Source: a virus
DNA: 39,537 nt
UHGV virus genome: UHGV-0134280
Direction: 5' to 3' (one strand)
Numbering within the stretch: position 1 is the first letter of the stretch; every line of letters starts with the position of its first letter. The notes below the pieces were generated by a model that was not told where the DNA came from, ran no database searches, and saw only the letters and a list, made by a program, of their open reading frames with translations. This document shows positions 3,924 through 35,736 of this stretch, piece after piece. Made by a program: the position numbers and the translations under genes.

Positions 3924-3950
3924 CCCGCAAAATATTGCGGGCTTTTTTTT
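3924..3950. terminator. Hairpin cccgcaa/ttgcggg with 8-T run at the 3' end of the tailspike gene
   Basis: Stem-loop 3924-3941; the T-run is on the plus strand and overlaps the tailspike stop codon, so the transcript it terminates is unclear. Confidence 0.4.
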
Positions 3951-6900
3951 AACGTTCTTCCAGAGACTGAATCCGCTCTTTTATCTTATCCATTTCTCTG
4001 CGCTGCCATGCTGCCTCGATATAGAATAAGAGATCAGGTCTGACCCCCCATCTAGATCCTGCTGGCGTTATTTCAACGCGCTCAATGATGTCTTCCATTA
4101 CCATCACTGGATTATCATCCTCATCAACAATGATGCTCCCGTCATTATCAGTCAGCGGAATTTCCCTTTGGCCAGTAATGACGTCATCATATACTGCGGG
4201 ATAATCGTCATAGCAAAGAAAGGCATAGCGGCATGTTGTGCTTTCTTCTTCCATGAGTCCGTGAGAAATAAGAACATCACGAAGTTGCTGCGCGATTACA
4301 CCATGATGTATCCTCGCCCCTTCTTCTCCCTTTATAGCGACAGCGTTCAGCCATTTATAAGCGATATACCTGACGTCACCCCAGGCATCCAGCAATGCTT
4401 CGTCAGGAGAGACCGGCTCTGTCTTTAATGTTCCGTCACTGGTAACCACAGGATTGGAGCCAAGATAAACTGTCGAGAACCTGTTTCCCGGACCACCAAG
4501 AGCATTTACATTATCAAGATAAGGTTTAACATCTCCGTTCTCAAAAAGATGTTCGAGTGCGTTATATACCGCGCGACGTGGAGTACTGCTTCCGGAACCA
4601 TGCAACGTTATCATTGCACCATCTGCTGAAGACGTTGTTTCACCGCCGCTAACGATTAATCTCTGAGCGGTAACATCATCAGACGGTACTTTCTTCGCAA
4701 TAATGGCGTAATTGCCCTCCAGTTTGACTTCCGCGCGAACTTGTCCTGATGTACCTGCATGGACAGTCAGTGACTGGACGGCAACATCATCTGTGAAATC
4801 AACGGGTACAGGAACCGTCCTCACGCCGGACGTCGACATAAAAGTAGGAAGCGTTCTGTTAGGAGTGGCTCCGTAGACAAAATCCCTTGAAACAAATTCT
4901 TCCTGTTTAATTTTCACCCTGAAACAATACAAATCAGCCGGGTGACCATCGTGAACATAAGGATATTTTCTGTTGTTATCCCCTATGCTCCATGGGTTTA
5001 GAAAGTCTTCCCCACCGAAAATGTAGTACAGCCAGTTGTCTTTGATACAAACTGAACCAACACCAACCGCAGAGTTAACTATTCCGCCCTGATAAATCTG
5101 ATCAGTAACATTAACCCACTCTACATTATCCAGACTCCACTCATTGACGTTAACTCTGGTCATAAATGTTCTTGGATAATTTCCTGCATAACGATTATCA
5201 GGTTCCCCTCCTTCCCACTCACCAAATGCGCGCTCACTGCCAAAAATAACCAGCTCATCGCCAACTTTGGCAAAAGGAAGGTTTGAGTGATGAACATTAT
5301 TTGGGAAGCGAAGAGAATTCCATGATGCACCTAAATCAGAGCTTCTGTGCAATGAACTACCAGGTTGAGTACTTAATGTCCCCCTGGTCGTCAGATACAG
5401 AATGCCATCATAATATTTTACACATGGCTCAGATGCATTCGCCTCATATTCTGCAGGTATGCGTCTGCGAACAAAGCTACCAGGAGAACCGAAAGCATCA
5501 GAGAAATAGAGTATCCCAAGCTCGCGTGGACCAATATCACCATTATGGTAGCCAACAGCAAAACTGTTATCGCTAATCGTCGCAAAACTGTGAATCTCAG
5601 TAACAGGAGTGCTTCCGTCAACAAAAGAAGGAATAGTTCCAAGACTGGTTTTTCTCCATGGTGACGAGTGAAATGATGTACCAAAACTCCAGTATCTACC
5701 CTCGTTATTCTGATCCACATCCTGAGTATTTTGCGTCGTAACTGTAAAAGTATTTTTATCAATAACAGTAGTCACCGTCATATTCCCGGTAACACCTGTA
5801 ACACCAGAGTTTGAGAAGTTGACAAAATCACCAGCAAATAATCCGTGATCAGTAATGCGAATATAAGCGACTTGCTGATTTGCTGCTTTCGTTATACCAC
5901 CATAAACGCGAAGGCTGCGACTCATTGGACGATCCCACAACTCTGCAACCTGCAGTTTATTTCCGCTCACGGTCCGCGTCTCAATTACAGCAAAAAGGCG
6001 ATTTCTGACAACCCCCATACTCATGCAGTGATAGTTAACTGTGGGATAGTTTTCATGTAAATCTGTAAGCCATTCCGGCGTTGTCCAGGTCTTCCCGTCA
6101 TCTCCTGAGCGAACCCATGCAACATGGAGGTTATTTACACCATGGCGGTCTCCAGCCATAAAAGGCGCATAGATGACATTGTCATATACAAACGTTTTAT
6201 CCTGCGTCCAGGCGTTGTACCACGGTGTATCTGTAATTTTAAATAACTCTCCCTGGATAAAATCTTCAGAAGCATAAAAAAGAGGCTGACCCGGTATTCT
6301 CTCAAATAAAAAACGAGCATTTTTAAATCGGCTGACATCCGGAAGAGTTGATACTTTAAAAGTAAGCCCTAATCCGTCAATTTTATAACCTGGAGATGAG
6401 GCTTCAAGGCACGCGCTTATTGCAGTGGAATCGTCATTTATACCATCACCAACAGCTCCAAAATCTTTGGGGCTAATAGCATCACGCATTTTATCCTGGA
6501 ACGTTCGGTATACTGCCCCAGAACCATACTGAATAAACCAACCAAAACCACCAACAACCCCGGCGATTGCAGCATCGACATAATTACGCATTGAGCGATT
6601 ATTTACAGCGTCCTGTTCAAGTGATGGATCTGCAAGGTTAGAAATTCTGTTTTGCTTTGCATCGTAATATTTTGCAAGCAAAGATGGTTTCATCAATGCA
6701 CGTCTGAACCATCCAAAACATTGCTGGATCAGCATCGTCAGGTAGTCAAAGGCATCTTCATGCACTTCGGGGAAAAACTTTCCCTGATTGCGAAGGTCTG
6801 TCTCCTGCACTACATCAAGCACACGATCTATCGTAATTCGCCAGCCAGCAGCAAGCGGCGACGGAAGAACAACAGAACCGCCACTATAAGTGCCCGCCCC

Positions 6901-7068
6901 AGTTACCGTATAACCGGTATCCAGAACCAATTCTGTTACGTTCCCGTTCAGGTCAGACACCTGAACAACCAGGTCGGATTTTTTGAAAATACGGAAGGTA
7001 TACGGAAATGATGTCGTAGCGCCGTTACCGGTGTATTCGTTGTGGTCAACTTCGGTTGAGACCGTCAT
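3949..7068 (-). CDS. Tailspike/tail fibre: T7 gp17-like N-terminal anchor, sialidase-type beta-propeller with Asp-boxes, C-terminal intramolecular chaperone (peptidase S74-like)
   Basis: N-terminal pattern resembles the T7 fibre anchor; Asp-boxes SGDDGKTW and SSDLGASW; C-terminal about 160 aa carries SDGTLK...YKW...GVIAQQL typical of auto-cleaving chaperone domains. Confidence 0.75.
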   Translation of the reverse strand: MTVSTEVDHNEYTGNGATTSFPYTFRIFKKSDLVVQVSDLNGNVTELVLDTGYTVTGAGTYSGGSVVLPSPLAAGWRITIDRVLDVVQETDLRNQGKFFPEVHEDAFDYLTMLIQQCFGWFRRALMKPSLLAKYYDAKQNRISNLADPSLEQDAVNNRSMRNYVDAAIAGVVGGFGWFIQYGSGAVYRTFQDKMRDAISPKDFGAVGDGINDDSTAISACLEASSPGYKIDGLGLTFKVSTLPDVSRFKNARFLFERIPGQPLFYASEDFIQGELFKITDTPWYNAWTQDKTFVYDNVIYAPFMAGDRHGVNNLHVAWVRSGDDGKTWTTPEWLTDLHENYPTVNYHCMSMGVVRNRLFAVIETRTVSGNKLQVAELWDRPMSRSLRVYGGITKAANQQVAYIRITDHGLFAGDFVNFSNSGVTGVTGNMTVTTVIDKNTFTVTTQNTQDVDQNNEGRYWSFGTSFHSSPWRKTSLGTIPSFVDGSTPVTEIHSFATISDNSFAVGYHNGDIGPRELGILYFSDAFGSPGSFVRRRIPAEYEANASEPCVKYYDGILYLTTRGTLSTQPGSSLHRSSDLGASWNSLRFPNNVHHSNLPFAKVGDELVIFGSERAFGEWEGGEPDNRYAGNYPRTFMTRVNVNEWSLDNVEWVNVTDQIYQGGIVNSAVGVGSVCIKDNWLYYIFGGEDFLNPWSIGDNNRKYPYVHDGHPADLYCFRVKIKQEEFVSRDFVYGATPNRTLPTFMSTSGVRTVPVPVDFTDDVAVQSLTVHAGTSGQVRAEVKLEGNYAIIAKKVPSDDVTAQRLIVSGGETTSSADGAMITLHGSGSSTPRRAVYNALEHLFENGDVKPYLDNVNALGGPGNRFSTVYLGSNPVVTSDGTLKTEPVSPDEALLDAWGDVRYIAYKWLNAVAIKGEEGARIHHGVIAQQLRDVLISHGLMEEESTTCRYAFLCYDDYPAVYDDVITGQREIPLTDNDGSIIVDEDDNPVMVMEDIIERVEITPAGSRWGVRPDLLFYIEAAWQRREMDKIKERIQSLEER

Positions 7069-7171
7069 GTTAAATCTCCAGATAGTCGCAGCACCCGTTG
7101 CGCCGCATATCTGGTTATTCTATTACCTGAAAAACCACATATGGATAGAAAGACTGTGAATACGAATAGAT

Positions 7172-7263: not shown

Positions 7264-7521
7264 ATGCAGCAGTATCACTATCCACTGGAAGACGGATTTA
7301 CCGAAAGGATTCACACGCCGGGAGGCGTCAGGTCACTGGTGGAGGGATCGCACTTGATGAAATTACTCCGGGATCTCAATAAGGATGGATTTAATGTCGA
7401 TGGCCCACTTGCCGAACTGACTGCACTGATTAACTACGTCACCAGCTCACAGATGTCTATGCAGGATCTGCAAACACATCTCGACTATTGTGCCGAACAA
7501 TTACGAAAACAAACCAGGTAA
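7264..7521 (+). CDS. Small KilAC/ANT C-terminal-domain protein (candidate SOS-controlled antirepressor)
   Basis: 86 aa from MQQYHY with GGAGAAG RBS; paralogous to the C-terminal domain of the Bro-N protein at 8668..9360. Confidence 0.55.
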   Translation: MQQYHYPLEDGFTERIHTPGGVRSLVEGSHLMKLLRDLNKDGFNVDGPLAELTALINYVTSSQMSMQDLQTHLDYCAEQLRKQTR

Positions 7522-7527
7522 ATTTAA

Positions 7528-7552
7528 AGGCCGCAAGAGCGGCCTATCGTTT
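7528..7552. terminator. Hairpin ggccgc-aaga-gcggcc between convergent genes
   Basis: 6-bp GC stem right after the stop at 7521, overlapping the stop of the minus gene; weak T-tract. Confidence 0.4.
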
Positions 7553-8272
7553 CGCTTTGTGCTCGTCCCAGCACGTTTTGCACCATGCCATTAAGCCGTC
7601 CGCATTTTGATTATTAGGGTAAAAGCTGGTTCGTTTTCTGCGGACATTACAAATTGGGCACCACTTCATATGACGTGTATTCTTTGGGCCATCGAGACAC
7701 CTTGCACACCACTTAGTCAATCCATCCGGATTTTTTGACGATTTCCTGAATTTTTCATATGGAAGGTTTATTCTGCATCGCAAGCACTGCTTGCTACCGC
7801 TTGAAACTCTGTTAGCTGATTCTTCTTTTGGCGGCGATACAGAAGATATTCTTGCTGGCTCTGATACTGCCTGAGGTGCTTTTTTAAATGACTGAGACGA
7901 TATGTCATCACCAGGGAATCTTCCATGATATGCCGGACGCGTTGACACTCCAGGTGGAAGCTCAGCTGTAAACGGCTTTGGCTGAATCAGTTGCCTCTCT
8001 TTTGCTAACTCCTGCTGTTTATAATATGTCTGGATTACCGCACTATCATAAGCATGAGGTACGGAAATATCAGGAGCGTTACCTCCAGTTTTTTGAAACT
8101 GAGTAGATGTGTGCTCTATCACCTGTGTACGATTAATCGTTATCTCCCCATCTTCGGTCTTTATCGTTTTGTTCTGATTAACGACCGTACGATCAGAGAT
8201 CTTAGTCTTGTTCTGGTTGATAACGTAAATAATCACCGCAACCACACCAACAACTATCCAGAAAACTTCCAT
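7544..8272 (-). CDS. N-terminally membrane-anchored protein with two C-terminal zinc-ribbon repeats, function unknown
   Basis: TM helix at residues 4-20; duplicated C-x2-C...DGL..WC..C modules in a basic C-terminal domain; GAGGAAAA RBS. Confidence 0.5.
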   Translation of the reverse strand: MEVFWIVVGVVAVIIYVINQNKTKISDRTVVNQNKTIKTEDGEITINRTQVIEHTSTQFQKTGGNAPDISVPHAYDSAVIQTYYKQQELAKERQLIQPKPFTAELPPGVSTRPAYHGRFPGDDISSQSFKKAPQAVSEPARISSVSPPKEESANRVSSGSKQCLRCRINLPYEKFRKSSKNPDGLTKWCARCLDGPKNTRHMKWCPICNVRRKRTSFYPNNQNADGLMAWCKTCWDEHKAKR

Positions 8273-8308: not shown

Positions 8309-8384
8309 ATCTTGCTTTCAGGTGATCAAGCGTTAAACGCAATCAACCAAATACGGTTGATTTTAATGTTTTTTCGCGCTTATC

Positions 8385-8401
8385 ATTACCTTTTCGGTAA
8401 A
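8385..8401. promoter_or_regulatory. 17-bp palindrome ATTACC-TTTTC-GGTAAa (site C)
   Basis: Read directly; one mismatch in the right half; inside the structured 8273-8667 intergenic region. Confidence 0.5.
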
Positions 8402-8667
8402 TTTACATCGCACTCCTCTTGTGCCATAGTAATCGGGCACTGGCAAAATCCAGTGCCGGGATTGGTCTCCCGGATTACTACAGAGGCACATATGCCGCAT
8501 AAGCGGTTTTTTTATGTGTAAAGCGCACCTATTCTATGGTGGGCTGTGTGGGGGCACCGAAAGGTGCGCCGGGTTCCTTTGTAGCCGGTAAGACCAACTC
8601 TGCACAGTTCACCACCATCTGATTGGTCTCAGCGGTGGTGATTAACCTAACTACAAAGGTGATCGCC

Positions 8668-9360
8668 ATGAATACCAAACCTTCCATCTTTTCCTTTGAG
8701 TCATCCTGCCAGATCCGTATGTTCATGATTGACGGAGAACCTTGGTTTGTCACCAAAGATGTGTGCAATGCTTTGAATATTGATGTTACACAAGCGAGAA
8801 AACTTGATAAAAAAGGCTGGAACAAAAAGGGGCTGCATTCAATACAGACCCCTGGTGGAATACAAGAACTATCCATCGTTTCAGAATCAGGTCTCTACAT
8901 CCTTATTCTGCGTTGCAAAGAGGCAATGACAGAGGGAACGAGAGCATTCAGATTTCTTGAATGGGTTACAGGTGAGGTTCTTCCTCAGATCCGCCGCACC
9001 GGAAGCTACATTAAAAACTCGCTCCCGCAGGAAGAACGCATAAAGATGGTTGCCGACCAGGTTGCCAACGCCACGGCGTCAGCAGTGATGCAGGCAATGA
9101 AGATAGAGAACAAAACCTACAGCGCCCCACTGAAGCCCGGCTACCGCAGTCTGATTCACTCGCCGTCTGGTGTTCTCGGCCTGACGGAGAACTCACTGCT
9201 GATGAATCTGCTGAACCAGTTACAGGAAGACGGGCACGACGTATCGGGCGCGGCGGCGGAGCTGACCACCATGTTCTGCTACATCGTCGGTGTGAGCAAA
9301 TGCCTGCGTGATATCGAGACCCACGCGGAGTACATCAACGATAAAGCAGGATTTTTCTGA
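8668..9360 (+). CDS. Ant-like antirepressor (Bro-N domain plus KilAC/ANT C-terminal domain)
   Basis: N-terminal pattern IRMFMIDGEPWFVTKDVCNAL typical of Bro-N; C-terminal domain paralogous to 7264..7521; start trimmed to MNTKP. Confidence 0.7.
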   Translation: MNTKPSIFSFESSCQIRMFMIDGEPWFVTKDVCNALNIDVTQARKLDKKGWNKKGLHSIQTPGGIQELSIVSESGLYILILRCKEAMTEGTRAFRFLEWVTGEVLPQIRRTGSYIKNSLPQEERIKMVADQVANATASAVMQAMKIENKTYSAPLKPGYRSLIHSPSGVLGLTENSLLMNLLNQLQEDGHDVSGAAAELTTMFCYIVGVSKCLRDIETHAEYINDKAGFF

Positions 9361-9432
9361 CGGAACGGCGGCACAGGGATGTGCCTTTAAATAATTCTGT
9401 ACAGATTGCAGACTGGGGGTGAATAGCGTACT

Positions 9433-9449
9433 ATTACCTTAAAGGTAAA
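9433..9449. promoter_or_regulatory. 17-bp palindrome ATTACC-TTAAA-GGTAAa (site D)
   Basis: Read directly; abuts the AGGAGG RBS of the small ORF at 9461. Confidence 0.55.
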
Positions 9450-9460
9450 GGAGGCGCGAT

Positions 9461-9628
9461 ATGACAGCGTTGAAAAATCGTACTCAGCACAATGAACAAG
9501 CCAAGCAATGCTGGGATGTCATTGGAAAAGTTATGCTTGGCCGCGCAAGCAAAGAGCGCGACAAGGATATGGTTTACCAGACAGGAACATCTTTCAGCGA
9601 CTTCAAGGCGGCATTTCGCTCCAAATAG
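9461..9628 (+). CDS. Small 55-aa protein, first gene of a two-gene moron
   Basis: ATG with AAGGAGG RBS; not in the ORF track because under 60 aa; translation MTALKNRTQHNEQAKQCWDVIGK...; 20 bp before the next gene. Confidence 0.4.
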   Translation: MTALKNRTQHNEQAKQCWDVIGKVMLGRASKERDKDMVYQTGTSFSDFKAAFRSK

Positions 9629-9648
9629 AAGCACATTAGGAGTTTGTC

Positions 9649-10089
9649 TTGAAGTTTAACATTAGAATATCTAATAGTTTTCTAAATGGGGAAAGCAACA
9701 CCCCTTTCGCTGTAGACGGACCTTTCCTTACTGACGATGAAATAAAAATCATACAAAGGTTTTTAGAAGATGTTGCCAATGGAAGGGCGCTTGTTGGAAA
9801 AAACAAGCCATCGTGGGTTGATGATAACCATGATAAAATTCCCGGCTCAGACAATTATGAGCAAGAGAATTATTGGCATTATCATTGTGGGCCAACATGG
9901 TATCCAAACACATTTAAGAATTATACCATTAACTTAAATTTCAACCCCGGCGGAATGCATTCTAATGAATGCATTCATTATGCAAAAAATGATAATGAAA
10001 TTGTCGTTGTTGGATTTTCAAGAGAACACATACCTTTCCTTTCATCAGATGGAAACGACAATCCGCTTTTTTATGATGAAGAAGAATAG
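9649..10089 (+). CDS. Moron protein of unknown function in an AT-rich segment
   Basis: TTG start with AGGAG RBS 7 nt upstream; base composition visibly lower in GC than flanking virion genes; strong terminator downstream; no recognisable motifs. Confidence 0.5.
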   Translation: MKFNIRISNSFLNGESNTPFAVDGPFLTDDEIKIIQRFLEDVANGRALVGKNKPSWVDDNHDKIPGSDNYEQENYWHYHCGPTWYPNTFKNYTINLNFNPGGMHSNECIHYAKNDNEIVVVGFSREHIPFLSSDGNDNPLFYDEEE

Positions 10090-10110
10090 CCCGCGCCGCG
10101 GGCTTTTTTG
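10088..10110. terminator. Rho-independent terminator gcccgcg/cgcgggc plus T6
   Basis: GC-rich hairpin then TTTTTT right after the stop of 9649..10089; an A-run on the other side makes it potentially bidirectional. Confidence 0.6.
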
Positions 10111-10174
10111 TGTCTGCGGATTCCCGTCCGGGCGGCGGTGGCATTCGTTAAAAACAAGGCCGCGAAAGCGGCAT

Positions 10175-10186
10175 GTGACATGTCAC
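10175..10186. repeat. 12-bp perfect palindrome GTGACATGTCAC (copy 1)
   Basis: Read directly; 8 bp downstream of the small minus-strand ORF, at the end of the virion operon. Confidence 0.7.
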
Positions 10187-10193
10187 GCTCACG

Positions 10194-10334
10194 TTATGAC
10201 AAGCCTATGTACCCTGCTACACCAGATAATATCAAAATAACTGCAACAGCAAATTCGCCATCGTCAATGATACATTTACGGTTCATAACGCCAAGTGCAA
10301 CAAGCGCAAACACAACAAGAATAAAAGCAATCAT
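10194..10334 (-). CDS. 46-aa two-helix hydrophobic peptide, translationally coupled to the last internal virion gene
   Basis: ATG 9 nt after the upstream stop with AAGGATGAG RBS; translation MIAFILVVFALVALGVMNRKCIIDDGEFAVAVILILSGVAGYIGLS; not in the ORF track. Confidence 0.4.
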   Translation of the reverse strand: MIAFILVVFALVALGVMNRKCIIDDGEFAVAVILILSGVAGYIGLS

Positions 10335-10343
10335 TTCTCATCC

Positions 10344-12818
10344 TTATTGCGGAGTGACATCCTGTGGTCGCCACCAGTATGTCTGGTTAAACTCTTTCTT
10401 CGAACGTTGCTCCATTTTACGCAAATAACCTGGTGAAAAATACTCCTGCATCTGGTTAAAGATCATGTGATCGAGAGCCGCCTTCAAGTACCAGAGATTC
10501 GCACCTGGCATCAGACCTTTCCCCAGCTTAACCAGATCACCACCAGTCTGCTCACTCTTCCCTTCCACAGCATTTAACGGTATGCCCTGAGCAATCTTCA
10601 CTACGTCATCAACCAGACCAGCTACCGGGCCAAGCATCGACGCCAGCGCGCCGCTTCCGTACCTAGTGTGATCTGACAATAAAAAGTCACCGTAAAGGCC
10701 AAGACCACCACCTTTCAGTAGAGCACCAAGCCAAAATTTAGCAGCATCTTCTCCTGTCATCTCGCGAGGATTACGACCAGACGCAAGGTCGTTAAGTTGC
10801 TGCGACAAAGCGCCAAGAATGGTCGTACTGGCAATAAACGTCGCAATATATGCCGCACGCCCACCAGCAGACGGCATACCCATAGCGCGTGACCAGTGAC
10901 GCATAACCACCGAGATAGGGAACGATTTAAACAGGAAAACACTTCTCGTTAATTCACCTTTCCATGTTCCACGCTGAATACCAGAACCGGTTATCAGTTG
11001 CTCACGTGCTCCCGGTGTAATAACAGCCATATCAACTTCTTCAGTTATGGCACCGAGCAGTTTACGCATTGCCTCAAATTTCACGCGTTCAGGCTCACCA
11101 AGATGTTTAACTGCTGAATCAGGGATACGCATAATGCTTTCCGGTGTCAGCATCGTATTATTGCCGTTCCCCCAGTCCTCCTGTTGCGCCAGCTTCCATA
11201 CGCTCCAGTCTGTGTCAGTAATCCCTTTGCTTTTCAGGATGCGAAAATCAGAATCATCGAGGCTACGAAGGTCTGGTGTCCGTGACACTACTTCTCCCAA
11301 GCTTCCCATCATGGTTACGCCATAGGCGCGCTTGTGCGCATCTGACCATGCTGTAAGCCCACTGGCACGCATTACCGCCGTTGCAGCCCAACGAGACACA
11401 GACGGCCCCATATTATCCATCGCCCAGCGGTTAACGCTGCCAAGTAGAGATTCCATCGCCAGACCAGCGCGGCGCGCCCGCGCAAGTTCTGTACGGTTCG
11501 TTGGGTCCATAGCTTCAAGCTGGTTGCGGAATAACTGGTTCATTGGAAGGTTGGTCACCTTCGCAGACAGATACATGGTTCCAAGATCAGAGAACGATGA
11601 CAGCAACGCGGATCCGAGTCTGCTGGCAACCAGCCAGTTGCGGATATTGTCAGACCATCGCGCGATGTGCGGATTCGCTACAGGCTGTGTCTTTCCGGAA
11701 ATAAAGTTGTACAGATTCTCTGTGTTGTTCGCCAGCCGCTCGACTTTACCGGTTTTACTCGGGTTAGCTGTTGCCGTTTCTGCCTTCACCTGATCAAGAA
11801 GAGAGCGGAAAACATGATCGGGGTTTGGGCCATATGTTTCCACCAGTGCAATATCTTTACTGATACCTTCCAGGTGACCGACCATGATTTCCCATAGAGA
11901 GCGATCGCCATAAAGTTGCTGATATTGCAGATAGGAATCTGCATCTTTGAAATGTATCTGTCGTGATGTATTACCACGGTTAGCACGTGCGCCTGAAATT
12001 CGCATTCCGGTATCAGTAAGCTTATTCAGCCCACCAGTAGCGATCGTGTTATAAGCCTCTCCAAGAAATGCAGACAACTCGGAATCGTTCATCAGTTGTC
12101 CATCGGCTCGGATATAATATTTGCGATCCAGCTTACCTATAACATCGCTAACCCACTTATCCTTTGATACCGCCCCAACCTTTTCCATAGAATGATGTTG
12201 AGGGATTCCCCAGTTTTCGAGATAGCCAATGTCCCCACCAGCATCATTAAACCGGCGGCGCAGTAGATCTGTCACTTCTCTCCACGCCTTAGCACCTTTT
12301 CTTGCTTTAGCATTGCCAGTATTTTGCCCTCGCATTTCATATACCAGGTCACGCACGCCAGCTTCATCTTCAAACAGGCCAAAAAAGCGAGGATCAACTG
12401 CTTCAAATGCCTCTTGCAATTGACTCAATGCATAATCACGAGTGGCTTTTGTTCTGGACTCAACAGAGAGGAAATTCGATTTACCGTCTGCATTAAAAGC
12501 AATAGTACGGTTAAGAGCGCCAAGTTTCCCATCAGCCCCTTGATAGCTATTGATAAATTTATCCAATCTCTGACGTGCGGATATAGTGAGGGCCACACGA
12601 CGTTTCTTTAATGCCGCTTCTCGCTGTAATTCTTCAGATGCCAATTGTGCTGCACGATATAGCCGCTCTGATTCGGAAAGTTGTCTCCACGACATCGGGT
12701 CATCACGAGCAATGGAGCGCATATTTCGATAAATGCGGTCTTCAATGTTCTGTATTTCTCGCGCCGTTAACGTGCGCTGCGCCGCCTGCTGGACCGCTTG
12801 TATACATTCCTGTCTCAT
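10344..12818 (-). CDS. Internal virion/ejection protein (T7 gp16-like, C-terminal part)
   Basis: 824 aa; called by size and position in the gp13-gp16-like block upstream of the tailspike. Confidence 0.5.
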   Translation of the reverse strand: MRQECIQAVQQAAQRTLTAREIQNIEDRIYRNMRSIARDDPMSWRQLSESERLYRAAQLASEELQREAALKKRRVALTISARQRLDKFINSYQGADGKLGALNRTIAFNADGKSNFLSVESRTKATRDYALSQLQEAFEAVDPRFFGLFEDEAGVRDLVYEMRGQNTGNAKARKGAKAWREVTDLLRRRFNDAGGDIGYLENWGIPQHHSMEKVGAVSKDKWVSDVIGKLDRKYYIRADGQLMNDSELSAFLGEAYNTIATGGLNKLTDTGMRISGARANRGNTSRQIHFKDADSYLQYQQLYGDRSLWEIMVGHLEGISKDIALVETYGPNPDHVFRSLLDQVKAETATANPSKTGKVERLANNTENLYNFISGKTQPVANPHIARWSDNIRNWLVASRLGSALLSSFSDLGTMYLSAKVTNLPMNQLFRNQLEAMDPTNRTELARARRAGLAMESLLGSVNRWAMDNMGPSVSRWAATAVMRASGLTAWSDAHKRAYGVTMMGSLGEVVSRTPDLRSLDDSDFRILKSKGITDTDWSVWKLAQQEDWGNGNNTMLTPESIMRIPDSAVKHLGEPERVKFEAMRKLLGAITEEVDMAVITPGAREQLITGSGIQRGTWKGELTRSVFLFKSFPISVVMRHWSRAMGMPSAGGRAAYIATFIASTTILGALSQQLNDLASGRNPREMTGEDAAKFWLGALLKGGGLGLYGDFLLSDHTRYGSGALASMLGPVAGLVDDVVKIAQGIPLNAVEGKSEQTGGDLVKLGKGLMPGANLWYLKAALDHMIFNQMQEYFSPGYLRKMEQRSKKEFNQTYWWRPQDVTPQ

Positions 12819-26439: not shown

Positions 26440-26516
26440 GTGGCATTAGCTCAGCTGGACAGAGCAACCGCCTTCTAAGCGGTTGGTCGCAGGTTCGAAT
26501 CCTGCATGCCACGCCA
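26440..26516 (+). tRNA. tRNA-Arg (anticodon UCU)
   Basis: Cloverleaf folded by hand: 7-bp acceptor stem GTGGCAT/ATGCCAC, D-arm, anticodon loop CTTCTAA, T-loop TTCGAAT, discriminator G and encoded CCA. Confidence 0.85.
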
Positions 26517-27176: not shown

Positions 27177-28652
27177 TTAAGCATAGGGATCGTAATCTGT
27201 AATGGCCTTGCCTTGCTGGTTCTGCTGACCTGGAATTCGCAGACGCTTCGACACAGGGAAAGCAAACGTCAGCAATAGCGCATCGCCTTTACCAGGAGAA
27301 CGCCCAAGCCGCTCCTTGATATCTTCCTTCGGTTCGATAACGATTTTACCGTCCACTCGAACTTTGTACTCTGCCGCCGACAGGTCGTCCGCTGTTTCCT
27401 GGTCATCAAGCATGCCGCCCAGCCTCAGCCATGTCTTGCATGAGTTGAACATCTCCCCGCGCTTATTGAGCATCTGCGGGTCAGTAGACGCGCCACCGAA
27501 CGGAACAAGTTGCCATGTACGACCCCAGCCGTCACCGATTGACTTCAGACCAGTTCCGTAACCGAAGTCGATGAACACTGCGTCAGCCTGGTACTGGTCT
27601 TCAAAGTCAGCGATACGCTTCGCCATAATCAGATCGTCAGTAGTCTTGTTGCCAGTCCACAGCACCTTACTGTGCAGCCCCTGCCGCAGGTATATCACCG
27701 CGTCATCAACGCCTGAGTATGCCGGGTCAACGCCGATTATCACCGGAGCATGTGCAACCTGCGCAGCGGTTACCACCCGTTTCATTGCCTCATCAGTAAG
27801 ACCGGTAGGGATAAACTGCAATTCAGATGCATCAGGGAATATGCCGCGCACACGGATTTTAACGAAGTCGCTGTCTTCCCCGTAGTCATCAACCCATTTC
27901 TGCAACTGCTGTTTGTTAGTGCCTTCCACCGTCCGGCTGTCAATCTGCGCAGTTTTCCAGCGGTGTTTATATTTGCGGAAACATTCGCGGAAACGCCCGG
28001 TGTTACGTGTAGGGTTTCCGAACGCCACCCAGATAATCTCAGTGTCTTCGTCCGTAAGCGCACCCTCGGCAACTTCCCACACCAGATCGGCAATGTTGGA
28101 TGCTTCGTCGAATACCACGATGATGCGTTTGCGCTCGTTGTGTAGTCCGGCGAATGCCTCAGTGTTGTGCTCAGACCAGGGGATTGCGTCAGCTCGCCAC
28201 CGCTTGTCGTGCCCAGGATCATTGCTGTACATCGCGGTAGCGGTACAGGTAAACCAGTCTTTCGTGATAGCAAGGTTCGACCACTTGATAATTTCCGGCC
28301 AGGTCTTCGTTCGTAGCTGGTTGTCGGTGTTGGCGGTCACCACGACCTTACAATCCTCGCAAGTGGACATGCCCCAGTTGATCAGCATTGAGATGAATGC
28401 GGATTTACCAATACCGTGACCAGAAGCGCGTGCCAGCATAAGCGGCTGATAACGCGTCTCTGGATTCTGCAGGTGATCACGTATCTCTCGGAACGCATCG
28501 GCCTGCCACTGACGTGGACCGGTAGCATGTGCCAGTTCAGTCCCCTCTTCCCCCCAAGGGAACGCATAGAGGGCATAGCCAAGCGGATCGTGAGTGAACC
28601 CTGCAATATCCTCGATCAACTGCTCTTCAGGAGATAACGCTGTATCTGTCAC
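27177..28652 (-). CDS. Terminase large subunit
   Basis: 491 aa; Walker A-like GHGIGKS near the N-terminus; overlapping stop/start with the small subunit gene. Confidence 0.85.
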   Translation of the reverse strand: MTDTALSPEEQLIEDIAGFTHDPLGYALYAFPWGEEGTELAHATGPRQWQADAFREIRDHLQNPETRYQPLMLARASGHGIGKSAFISMLINWGMSTCEDCKVVVTANTDNQLRTKTWPEIIKWSNLAITKDWFTCTATAMYSNDPGHDKRWRADAIPWSEHNTEAFAGLHNERKRIIVVFDEASNIADLVWEVAEGALTDEDTEIIWVAFGNPTRNTGRFRECFRKYKHRWKTAQIDSRTVEGTNKQQLQKWVDDYGEDSDFVKIRVRGIFPDASELQFIPTGLTDEAMKRVVTAAQVAHAPVIIGVDPAYSGVDDAVIYLRQGLHSKVLWTGNKTTDDLIMAKRIADFEDQYQADAVFIDFGYGTGLKSIGDGWGRTWQLVPFGGASTDPQMLNKRGEMFNSCKTWLRLGGMLDDQETADDLSAAEYKVRVDGKIVIEPKEDIKERLGRSPGKGDALLLTFAFPVSKRLRIPGQQNQQGKAITDYDPYA

Positions 28653-29245
28653 TGATTACCATCCTGACGTTCTTTGAGTCGCTTCCTGGCTGCTGCTATG
28701 CGATCAGCAATTGTCACATTCACATTAACATCCAGACGTTCTTTGAACGCGTTGACATCAACATGCTTACCAATCAGCTCAAGGTTCTTCACCTTGTCAG
28801 GCCATTTAATTTTTTTGAGGATTGTCTCTATCGAATCCTCGTTCATGTTCATGATGGTCGATGACAGATCAAAGCCACTAAGCGTAGTGCGCCAGATTTT
28901 CGGCCACTCACGGATTGGTTTAAGGCTCCCATCGTCGTTGAGGATATCGATCACGTCCATCTGGTCGATCTCCACCAGGCGCATGAGAACGTAATCAGCA
29001 CTGACGCGCATTCGTTTGTTGCGCTCCTCCATCAACTCGGCAATCCGTTTTTGAATGCGTTCATCGCGCATCATGACACTGGCTTTAACTGCCGCTGTAT
29101 TTGGGGAGAATCCTGCGTTAATCGCAGCCTGAGTCTGGTTTTCAGGCGTTTTGATGTATGACTGGCAATAAGCCTCCTGCATTGCTGTGAGCGGCTTAAA
29201 TTGCGTTGATTTGCGTTTATAGGTTTTAGGTTCAGCAGGCATCAT
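28649..29245 (-). CDS. Terminase small subunit
   Basis: HTH-like segment QAAINAGFSPNTAA; start trimmed to ATGATG with GGTGG RBS because the track extension to 29323 runs through a terminator hairpin. Confidence 0.65.
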   Translation of the reverse strand: MMPAEPKTYKRKSTQFKPLTAMQEAYCQSYIKTPENQTQAAINAGFSPNTAAVKASVMMRDERIQKRIAELMEERNKRMRVSADYVLMRLVEIDQMDVIDILNDDGSLKPIREWPKIWRTTLSGFDLSSTIMNMNEDSIETILKKIKWPDKVKNLELIGKHVDVNAFKERLDVNVNVTIADRIAAARKRLKERQDGNQ

Positions 29246-29261
29246 AACCACCCTGGTAATT

Positions 29262-29278
29262 GTTACCGTTGTGGTAAT
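29262..29278. promoter_or_regulatory. 17-bp palindrome gTTACC-GTTGT-GGTAAT (site J) with an extra GGTAAT half-site at 29255-29260
   Basis: Read directly; between the terminator at 29286-29314 and the small terminase RBS. Confidence 0.5.
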
Positions 29279-29285
29279 AGTACCA

Positions 29286-29314
29286 TGCAAAATAAAGCCG
29301 CCATAGTTGGCGGC
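29286..29314 (-). terminator. Rho-independent terminator gccgcca/tggcggc upstream of the terminase genes
   Basis: 7-bp GC stem with 4-nt loop; on the minus-strand transcript it is followed by UUUAUUUUG. Confidence 0.55.
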
Positions 29315-29355
29315 AGTATTCAAAACCCATCAAATTCATCATGCATAATCTACTC

Positions 29356-34631: not shown

Positions 34632-34862
34632 TCATGAGTAGAAGAAGTATGCCAGTTCTGCTTTTGAGCGCAGCCATTGTCTTGTTTTACAGGCTTTAAA
34701 AAGCCCATTCATCAATACCTTACCTGGCATTTTGCGCTTACCTGTTAAGTGAGTCTGGATATAGTGACTCGTCGTTCCGGCTTCCTGTGCGAAGGCTTCA
34801 CGCTCATCCGGAGTAAGTGCAAGCCAGTGCTTTTTGAAATCGAAATGTCCGTTATCGCTCAT
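34632..34862 (-). CDS. Cro-like HTH regulator (XRE family)
   Basis: 76 aa; HTH-like segment QEAGTTSHYIQTHLTGKRKMPG; first gene of the early operon divergent from the repressor. Confidence 0.55.
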   Translation of the reverse strand: MSDNGHFDFKKHWLALTPDEREAFAQEAGTTSHYIQTHLTGKRKMPGKVLMNGLFKACKTRQWLRSKAELAYFFYS

Positions 34863-35016: not shown

Positions 35017-35601
35017 ATGAAAAGTATCCAGGACGTCCGCAGGCAAAATCTCAACGACTTGATCGACCGTGAATTCAATGGTGTTCAGACGCGGATGGCA
35101 GAAAAACTTGGAACTCAGGCAAATCTGGTAAACCGCTGGGCTCTTGGCAAGAAGGTTATCGGCGACCAGGTTGCGCGAAAAATTGAAGCTGCCGCCAATA
35201 AACCCCGTAACTGGCTTGATATCGATCGCTCGCTTTCTCAGGAAGGTTTTCAGCCTGTCGGCCCAAGCGACATTGGTCAGCTGGCGGCTCACAACCTGGA
35301 ACGCTGGATGAGCGAAAGCCGCGACCTTTCAACACAGGGAAAACTTCACCGCGCATCCGGCGTCGCCCAGGTAACAATCAGCCGCCTGTTAAACAATGAG
35401 GTCAGCGTTTCCATTTCCACCCTGGAGAATGTTGCATCCGCATTCGGGCGTCACGGCTATGAATTACTGATTCACCCGCACGACCCTGCGACCATCAACT
35501 ATGACCGCTCGCGCTACGCATTGTTACCCGAAACCGAGAAAGCAAAGATCGAAAGTTACATTGAATTTGTCATCAACCAGAACGAAAAAAATAAACAATA
35601 A
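35017..35601 (+). CDS. Immunity repressor candidate with two XRE-type HTH domains and no S24 peptidase domain
   Basis: HTH-like segments around residues 20-55 and 105-150; no LexA-like Ser/Lys autocleavage module seen; no obvious RBS (possibly leaderless). Confidence 0.65.
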   Translation: MKSIQDVRRQNLNDLIDREFNGVQTRMAEKLGTQANLVNRWALGKKVIGDQVARKIEAAANKPRNWLDIDRSLSQEGFQPVGPSDIGQLAAHNLERWMSESRDLSTQGKLHRASGVAQVTISRLLNNEVSVSISTLENVASAFGRHGYELLIHPHDPATINYDRSRYALLPETEKAKIESYIEFVINQNEKNKQ

Positions 35602-35692: not shown

Positions 35693-35736
35693 TTGACATC
35701 AAACCAAATACGCATAATCATTACCTAAACGGTAAC
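35693..35736 (+). promoter_or_regulatory. Candidate early-left promoter (TTGACA ... CATAAT/TAATCA) with overlapping palindrome ATTACC-TAAAC-GGTAAc (site I, 35720-35736)
   Basis: Consensus -35 hexamer; -10-like hexamers 14-16 bp downstream; operator-like palindrome over the predicted start region. Confidence 0.4.

Follow-up and report, generated by a model that had tools for sequence, protein, structure and literature searches.

A two-gene cassette of an Escherichia coli Uetakevirus prophage as a candidate toxin-antitoxin-like module with a predicted RelE-fold protein

What does a small two-gene cassette between the antirepressor gene and the virion genes of a prophage of Escherichia coli encode, and what controls it? 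The cassette occupies positions 9433–10110 of the virus genome UHGV-0134280, a stretch of 39,537 nucleotides (nt) that was analysed as a whole and is called the window below. This window represents an E. coli prophage of the epsilon15/phiV10-like group (Uetakevirus). An initial annotation, made without database searches, had described the cassette as an AT-rich moron of unknown function with an operator-like site of its own. On balance we lean towards reading it as a type II toxin-antitoxin-like module that belongs to a new, unannotated family and is carried as exchangeable cargo in a slot of Uetakevirus prophages. The genes and their signals are the following:

9450–9454, plus strand: Shine-Dalgarno sequence GGAGG of orf55, read from the sequence.
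9461–9628, plus strand: orf55, 55 amino acids (aa), ATG to TAG, open reading frame with a PHROG match.
9638–9642, plus strand: Shine-Dalgarno sequence AGGAG, 6 nt ahead of the TTG of orf146, read from the sequence.
9649–10089, plus strand: orf146, 146 aa, TTG to TAG, open reading frame with a PHROG match.
10088–10112, plus strand: intrinsic terminator, with the stem at 10088–10104 (AGCCCGC/GCGGGCT, loop GCC) followed by a T run.

All sequence features that had been listed for the two genes and their terminator are present. The gap of 20 base pairs, taken earlier as a hint at co-transcription, measures exactly 20 nt; there is a single terminator, and each gene has its own Shine-Dalgarno sequence. 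The strong ribosome-binding site and the TTG start of the second gene are likewise confirmed, the latter because homologues start at the same residue; the start codon of this family is TTG or GTG in 6 of 9 loci. The terminator deserves to be called strong, as its stem has 7 pairs, 6 of them G-C, and it overlaps the stop codon of orf146. Both proteins match a PHROG end to end (E-values 3.6e-39 for orf55 and 2e-73 for orf146), both PHROGs being of unknown function and the one of orf55 being PHROG 8607, and both are conserved across genera despite diverged DNA, with protein identities of 47% (orf55) and 59% (orf146) to a pair in Pectobacterium. Hence both are real genes and not chance open reading frames.

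The description of the segment as AT-rich holds for orf146 (35.8% guanine-cytosine content, GC), but not for orf55 (47.0%), which is close to the mean of the window (48.7%). The large gene has 33–42% GC in every host examined, compared to 38–56% in the flanks. Homologues of orf146 at eight loci (L004, L005, L006, L009, L012, L017, L019, L022) are AT-rich between flanks of 47–56% GC, while the small gene follows the host. Amino-acid composition, selection and recent acquisition from a lineage of low GC (Proteus or Pasteurellaceae) are all possible reasons. In the record of phage phiv142-3 (MN187550; L001) an intact 146-aa gene at 6368–6808 was overlooked in the GenBank annotation, which instead has a 52-aa open reading frame (Orf10) inside it in another frame.

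Structure prediction, as the initial annotation had recommended for both proteins, yields a RelE/ParE-superfamily fold for orf146 and two helices for orf55. The AlphaFold model of orf146, built from the family alignment (predicted local distance difference test, pLDDT, 90.6; predicted template modelling score, pTM, 0.85), shows the alpha/beta arrangement characteristic of RelE/ParE, i.e. an N-terminal strand, two helices and an antiparallel sheet. Foldseek likewise ranks families with this fold first, albeit with weak E-values, and a Foldseek comparison of viral structures returned nothing informative. Orf146 is about 55 residues longer than RelE-type toxins, with insertions at residues 55–74 and 80–107, and as modelled it is a RelE-fold protein enlarged by loop insertions.

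A word-indexed search lists 34 homologues of orf146 in Enterobacterales and Pasteurellaceae, and a profile search against 1.84 billion representatives gives 117 clusters. Among 96 diverged members of the family N52, K53, H77 and H79 are invariant, H110, Y111 and H127 are conserved in at least 94%, and G50, Y78 and N99 are also nearly invariant. In the model the conserved residues are located on or beside predicted beta-strands. The resulting pattern of lysine, histidine and tyrosine residues (K53, H77, H79, H110, Y111, H127) would suit an acid-base ribonuclease (RNase) site, and the conserved histidines suggest that orf146 is closer to the RNase branch of the superfamily than to the gyrase-poisoning ParE. 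Judged by model and conservation, the most likely function of orf146 is that of an endoribonuclease (mRNA interferase).

The small partner is a basic protein (isoelectric point, pI, 9.8). Its AlphaFold2 model, of modest confidence (pLDDT 74), consists of a long helix at residues 2–42 and a short one at 45–53, and has neither a globular nor a DNA-binding fold. A pair of helices that lacks a domain fold is a typical feature of antitoxin segments that wrap a toxin, as in PaaA2. Orf55 has no match in Pfam, so no Phd/YefM domain was found, and none among PDB sequences in a profile search; a sequence search with orf55 retrieves close homologues alone. At each orf146 locus that was read, the large gene is immediately preceded by a homologue of orf55 with 55–64 aa (56–64 aa in the diverged versions); these share the pattern W-D-x-I-G-x-x-[IL]-L-x-R ... 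Y-x-x-G-[TM]-[ST] ... D-F. In a Pasteurellaceae prophage the partner has 159 aa and carries the same motif at its C-terminus, which suggests a conserved C-terminal segment in contact with the toxin and a variable N-terminus. The combination of a large acidic and a small basic protein is kept in most orthologous pairs. Based on these features we propose that orf55 may bind and neutralise orf146 in the manner of an antitoxin.

The two genes travel together. Small and large gene are found as a pair in at least 9 settings, with a gap of 0–31 nt in 9 loci. In Uetakevirus-like prophages (E. coli, Pectobacterium, Serratia) the pair lies downstream of a BRO-N gene. Elsewhere it follows a P22-type Arc/Ant region, is located among the tail genes of a Pantoea prophage, and occurs in a prophage remnant of Klebsiella aerogenes. 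The pair also stands alone beside accA in the chromosome of Erwinia persicina, and it is found on small Rep/Rop plasmids. One Proteus contig holds little else besides rep; its terminal overlap of 110 nt identifies it as a circular plasmid of about 3.1 kb. Identity to the copy in the window is 24–61% for the partner and 47–59% for the large protein, the partner diverging faster in most comparisons. Mobility as an intact pair, a non-ATG start of the toxin gene in the majority of loci and a faster-diverging partner are together typical of type II toxin-antitoxin modules. The same applies to the generic hallmarks of such modules, as the genes are small and co-oriented with a short gap, and the pair has been mobilised across unrelated replicons (prophages of at least 3 types, plasmids and a chromosome). 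About 1.4% of complete E. coli genomes carry a member of the family. Two frameshifted variants of orf55 (P0044, P0045) were considered as cases of a toxin without a partner, and rejected as sequencing errors, since scattered 1-nt deletions affect the non-coding DNA of the same contigs as well.

The position of the pair in the prophage is an accessory slot, and the earlier view of a self-contained accessory unit is borne out, as the pair is an exchangeable cassette. The 5' 70 nt of the slot and its terminator are common to prophages without this cassette. The junction was found in about 330 E. coli genomes, 77 of which carry the cassette described here. In phage TL-2011b the same junction and a near-identical terminator surround a 59-aa gene (gp45) and a 181-aa ‘YafO family toxin’ (gp44) that matches Pfam PF13957; a cassette of this type is present in 61 genomes. 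Other contents of the slot are a pair of a 108-aa protein and a 170-aa YafO-family toxin, a 210-aa hypothetical protein and a DUF4760 protein, so that pairs of a small gene and a RelE/YafO-like gene make up 3 of the 5 cargo types seen. YafO is an experimentally established, translation-dependent mRNA interferase related to RelE (PMC2814082). The toxin-antitoxin-like layout noted at the outset is thus backed by the modelled RelE/ParE fold of the large protein, by the movement of the pair as a unit and by the YafO-family cassettes that fill the slot elsewhere. The alternative cargo and the downstream edge of the slot map as follows:

L016, 3630–4329: alternative slot cargo, same junction.
L023/L024, 2401–3226: alternative slot cargo, same junction.
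L025, 2418–3050: alternative slot cargo, same junction.
L026, 2481–3020: alternative slot cargo, same junction.
Window, 10113–10151, plus strand: 3' remnant (last 39 nt left) of a 53-aa gene (gp43 of TL-2011b, ‘transmembrane anchored protein’, WP_000708858-like).

An intact copy of the 53-aa gene follows the slot in phiv142-3, in TL-2011b and in further E. coli prophages. The lineage of the window has lost about 192 base pairs compared to phiv142-3, window positions 10113–10187 corresponding to 7024–7098 of that phage.

How the cassette is expressed can be approached from its upstream region and from the immunity region of the prophage, the relevant elements being:

9406–9434, plus strand: promoter-like element (TTGCAG at 9406–9411, 17-nt spacer, TACTAT at 9429–9434), recognised by eye.
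9433–9449, no strand assigned: palindrome ATTACCTTAAAGGTAAA, a copy of TTACC-N5-GGTAA that overlaps the promoter-like -10 hexamer.
7173, 8293, 8386, 9434, 26103, 29245, 29263, 32554, 32616, 34562, 34899, 34947, 35659 and 35721: sites of the 15-nt motif, extended form ATTACCTTnnnGGTAAT.
34632–34862, minus strand: cro-like gene, divergent from the cI-like gene.
35017–35601, plus strand: cI-like repressor gene of the HTH_3 type, 194 aa (Pfam HTH_3, E-value 1.2e-9), with operator copies on both flanks.

No sigma-70 consensus upstream of orf55 scores above the threshold of the scanner. The palindrome had been taken for an operator belonging to the cassette, which does not hold: it is one copy of a motif that is dispersed over the prophage and matches sites in the cI-cro switch. 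When up to one mismatch is allowed, the window has 14 copies of TTACC-N5-GGTAA where 0.68 would be expected; this number was not reached in any of 100 shuffles, and 12 of the 14 copies are intergenic. The cro-cI intergenic region has three copies, the third with 2 mismatches and therefore outside the 14, and two further copies, one of them at 35720–35736, flank a promoter (TTGACA-17-AATCAT) just downstream of cI. The promoter of the antirepressor gene ant (TTGATT-18-TATCAT, 8357–8386) has a copy at 8385–8401. At this promoter, at the one after cI and at the promoter-like element of orf55 alike, the motif starts within the -10 hexamer, and a repeat analysis (family D3) aligns the ant and orf55 versions of promoter and operator. 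Other copies precede the 85-aa gene at 7264, a 242-aa gene and the tRNA/late region, and one is at a site after the replication genes. Two adjacent copies (29245–29277) fall within the small terminase gene (28649–29323, minus strand), in its 5' portion; regulation, a pac-related role or chance are possible explanations for these.

TL-2011b and prophages of Pectobacterium and Serratia have kept the motif at the corresponding promoters of the accessory region, upstream of the small gene; no copy was found upstream of the pair at the plasmid and Erwinia chromosomal loci. Judging from its distribution, TTACC-N5-GGTAA is probably the immunity operator of the prophage and bound by the cI-like repressor, and Cro probably binds the same sites. 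A similar consensus, ATTACC...GGTAAT, was reportedly proposed as the repressor operator of epsilon15 by Kropinski and colleagues with the genome of that phage in 2007. Because the motif is shared with the cI-cro switch and may thus be regarded as a putative immunity operator, the lysogen probably keeps the cassette repressed, and induction or infection would lift this repression. Such repression departs both from the idea of a moron and from autoregulation by an antitoxin. The moron description is in line with the terminator, the GC content of orf146 and the promoter-like element; a copy of the probable immunity operator overlapping -10 and +1 argues against autonomous expression. Nor does orf55 resemble a DNA-binding antitoxin that controls its own promoter, as its model has two helices, and the palindrome upstream is a prophage-wide motif that does not accompany the pair at non-phage loci. 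An Rfam scan detects no RNA family within the cassette itself.

Based on these data we hypothesize the following sequence of events. When the repressor is absent, transcription would start from a weak promoter near 9441, and both genes would be co-transcribed up to the strong terminator. Orf55 would be translated efficiently from its ATG and strong Shine-Dalgarno sequence, and orf146 less so owing to its TTG start. Orf55 would then bind and mask orf146, and any free orf146 would cut RNA, the most likely substrate being ribosome-bound mRNA as for RelE, YoeB and YafO. The promoter would not be autoregulated by the antitoxin; instead, the immunity-operator copy overlapping it would allow the cI-like repressor to keep the pair off or low in the lysogen. 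On plasmids and chromosomes the pair would serve as an addiction or selfish module of the usual kind; it would be subordinate to the immunity circuit in the phage described here. A wider hypothesis, which we put forward tentatively, is that the Uetakevirus slot is swappable for RelE-fold toxin/partner pairs, comprising the acidic family described here and at least two YafO-type families, all of which would be under the immunity repressor by virtue of a common operator and terminator. The repressor would then be a third component that couples release of the toxin to loss of immunity, be it by induction or by failed lysogeny.

The inferred timing of expression invites a different explanation, in which orf146 would be an early, lytic-phase RNase of host takeover that degrades host transcripts or blocks translation after removal of the repressor, and orf55 would be a timing factor, a chaperone or a specificity subunit. 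An overlap of promoter and putative immunity operator predicts expression at induction or infection only, just as this explanation requires, and the RelE-like fold with its conserved histidine and lysine residues is compatible with it as well. Moreover, the cassette follows an antirepressor operon under the control of a C4 RNA, akin to P1, where the repressor-controlled kilA is located downstream of ant. However, the pair occurs alone on a 3.1-kb plasmid and at a chromosomal intergenic site, without phage context or operator, which fits a self-sufficient selfish module better. We therefore regard a takeover function as unlikely, albeit worth keeping in mind.

Defence, anti-defence and superinfection exclusion had been named as frequent functions of such cassettes, and have found no direct support here. 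A defence function would require leaky or constitutive expression in the lysogen, with abortive infection once an invading phage depletes or inactivates orf55. The slot is indeed a variable cargo hotspot in prophages, toxin-antitoxin modules are generally known to serve frequently in abortive infection, and with a single operator and a weak promoter repression might be incomplete. On the other hand, PADLOC finds no match, there are no known defence genes nearby, and the operator predicts repression in lysogeny, exactly when defence would be needed. Defence thus appears rather doubtful.

Several observations weigh against the toxin-antitoxin interpretation itself. Scans of orf55 and orf146 against Pfam, NCBIfam and PADLOC give no match, in agreement with the earlier statement that neither product is recognisable. 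None of 26 members of the orf146 family matches a Pfam toxin family even at E ≤ 10, the curated families considered being ParE_toxin/RelE, YoeB, YafQ, HigB, BrnT and YafO, and the profile of the family retrieves noise only from PDB sequences. Nineteen distant members show no Pfam domain at E ≤ 0.01. The literature searched contains no experimental evidence of toxicity, and nothing on this family. Furthermore, if the repressor silences the pair in the lysogen, the usual addiction or defence logic of toxin-antitoxin modules would not operate from the prophage.

Membership of orf146 in the YafO family was considered and rejected. Searching YafO sequences with the profile of the orf146 family (hmmsearch) gives about 0 bits, and hhalign of the family against the YafO profile returns P 0.026 and a probability of 1.9%, both of which again speak against the proposed toxin identity. 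As a positive control, the TL-2011b-type protein matches PF13957 (YafO_toxin) with 26.3 bits. At low stringency hhalign pairs GKNKPSW with GRDAxY, WHYHCG with AHIHLA, and IHY with LVY, plus a C-terminal histidine (orf146 family and YafO, respectively), which is not significant. The motif pattern is suggestive, the statistics are not, and since the similarity is not significant orf146 is filed as a distinct family of its own.

Besides the missing sequence link to known toxins, charge is a main objection. Orf146 has a pI of 4.7 and a net charge of -12, its homologues all have a pI of 4.7–5.8, and such acidity is odd for a protein that is expected to bind ribosomal or messenger RNA; compared to RelB and RelE the charges are reversed, orf146 being acidic and orf55 and its homologues mostly basic. 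The target or the mode of action of this acidic family may be unlike that of the ribosome-dependent RelE toxins. That orf146 merely reuses a RelE-like fold as an inhibitor, a decoy or a nucleic-acid mimic, with orf55 as an unrelated basic protein or as the active partner, would account for the low pI, the reversed charges, the weak Foldseek E-values and the lack of sequence similarity to any characterised toxin, but it is improbable in view of the invariant histidine, lysine, asparagine and tyrosine residues over 96 diverged members, which point to an enzyme, the tight linkage of the pair on plasmids and the slot shared with YafO toxin cassettes.

The toxin-antitoxin-like module that we favour resembles several known systems in part. 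With YafN-YafO of E. coli K-12 it shares a two-gene operon with the small gene first, and a toxin larger than canonical RelE; it differs in that orf146 has no significant sequence similarity to YafO, and orf55 is a 55-aa helical protein of no known family rather than a YafN of the Phd/YefM type. The phage YafO cassettes (gp45/gp44 of TL-2011b) have the slot, the upstream junction, the operator and the terminator in common with it. Compared to RelBE, YoeB-YefM, DinJ-YafQ and HigBA, orf146 is longer by those same 55 or so residues, acidic and not basic, and without a sequence match, and orf55 lacks a ribbon-helix-helix, Phd or helix-turn-helix DNA-binding domain. In the paaR2-paaA2-parE2 system of E. 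coli O157 prophages the antitoxin is small, entirely helical and devoid of a DNA-binding domain, and there is a separate repressor. Helical antitoxin, transcription left to a separate repressor and prophage location are thus common to both, whereas the regulator inferred here is the immunity repressor of the prophage, acting via a genome-wide operator, and not a dedicated third gene. What is new is most likely a family within the well-known RelE-superfamily kind of type II toxin-antitoxin systems, and not a new kind of system.

A further parallel concerns the neighbourhood. The immI region of P1/P7 (a C1-controlled promoter, C4 antisense RNA, icd-ant and the C1-controlled kilA-repL) also has a C4 RNA with a1/b1 targets before the antirepressor, and in both cases the ant promoter and the promoter of the next cassette have putative repressor operators. 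This is a resemblance in context only, as the cassette encodes nothing related to KilA/RepL, and the antirepressor is of the BRO-N type. The neighbours of the cassette are:

8668–9360, plus strand: BRO-N antirepressor gene, upstream neighbour.
10194–10334, minus strand: 46-aa gene of the virion internal-protein operon, downstream and convergent.
10344–12818, minus strand: 824-aa gene of the virion internal-protein operon, downstream and convergent.

The cassette had been placed between virion genes. This is correct for its downstream side with the convergent internal-protein genes, but not for its upstream side, where the BRO-N gene is located. In the leader of the BRO-N gene Rfam detects the isrK Hfq-binding RNA (8437–8513, 74.7 bits), the C4 antisense RNA (8532–8619, 78.6 bits) and c4-a1b1 targets (8424–8476), the last with 39.9 bits and thus under the gathering score of 46.7 bits. 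Together with the repressor operator at the promoter (8357–8401), this leader corresponds to antisense control of the P1/P7 immI type. The 85-aa protein (7264–7521) and the C-terminal domain of the BRO-N antirepressor are paralogous, with 41% identity over 74 residues and PHROGs 450 and 15539 shared; in TL-2011b the P22-type Ant has the same domain at its C-terminal end. The 85-aa protein may be a free-standing repressor-binding or regulatory domain.

The 242-aa protein (7544–8272, minus strand) has a hydrophobic N-terminus and Cys-rich repeats at its C-terminus, with a weak Pfam match to Stc1 and PHROG matches to endonuclease VII, HNH and Lar-like zinc modules. Its position is a second variable slot, filled in E. 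coli Combat2C1 by another YafO-family toxin pair (L024, 148–1159).

As regards the source of the window, positions 9380–10130 are 100% identical to E. coli VR50 and to several avian/poultry isolates, and 98% identical to phage phiv142-3. Aligned blocks of the whole window are 97.4–99.7% identical to VR50, with an offset past about 17 kb; hence coordinates in the right half and in the immunity region were taken from the window itself. The prophage adjoins yfgG-yfgH-yfgI. The tailspike (3949–7068, minus strand) is an endosialidase specific for the K1 capsule according to the annotation of the near-identical VR50 record, and a tRNA-Arg (anticodon tct) is located at 26440–26516.

If the interpretation as a toxin-antitoxin-like module is correct, the cassette would represent a RelE-superfamily toxin family that has been missed by sequence-based toxin-antitoxin and defence finders, which have no Pfam, NCBIfam or PADLOC model for it, and this family would span small plasmids and prophages across Enterobacterales and Pasteurellaceae. 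Its unusual traits would be the reversed charge, with an acidic toxin and a basic partner, the lack of a DNA-binding domain in the antitoxin, and a phage immunity operator that governs expression in a cargo hotspot. The 14 motif sites map the likely repressor-controlled promoters of this Uetakevirus group, the motif being kept in the Serratia and Pectobacterium relatives. A hotspot that alternates RelE-like toxin cassettes behind a copy of the immunity operator would make a tractable system for studying why a temperate phage should put toxins under the control of its own repressor.

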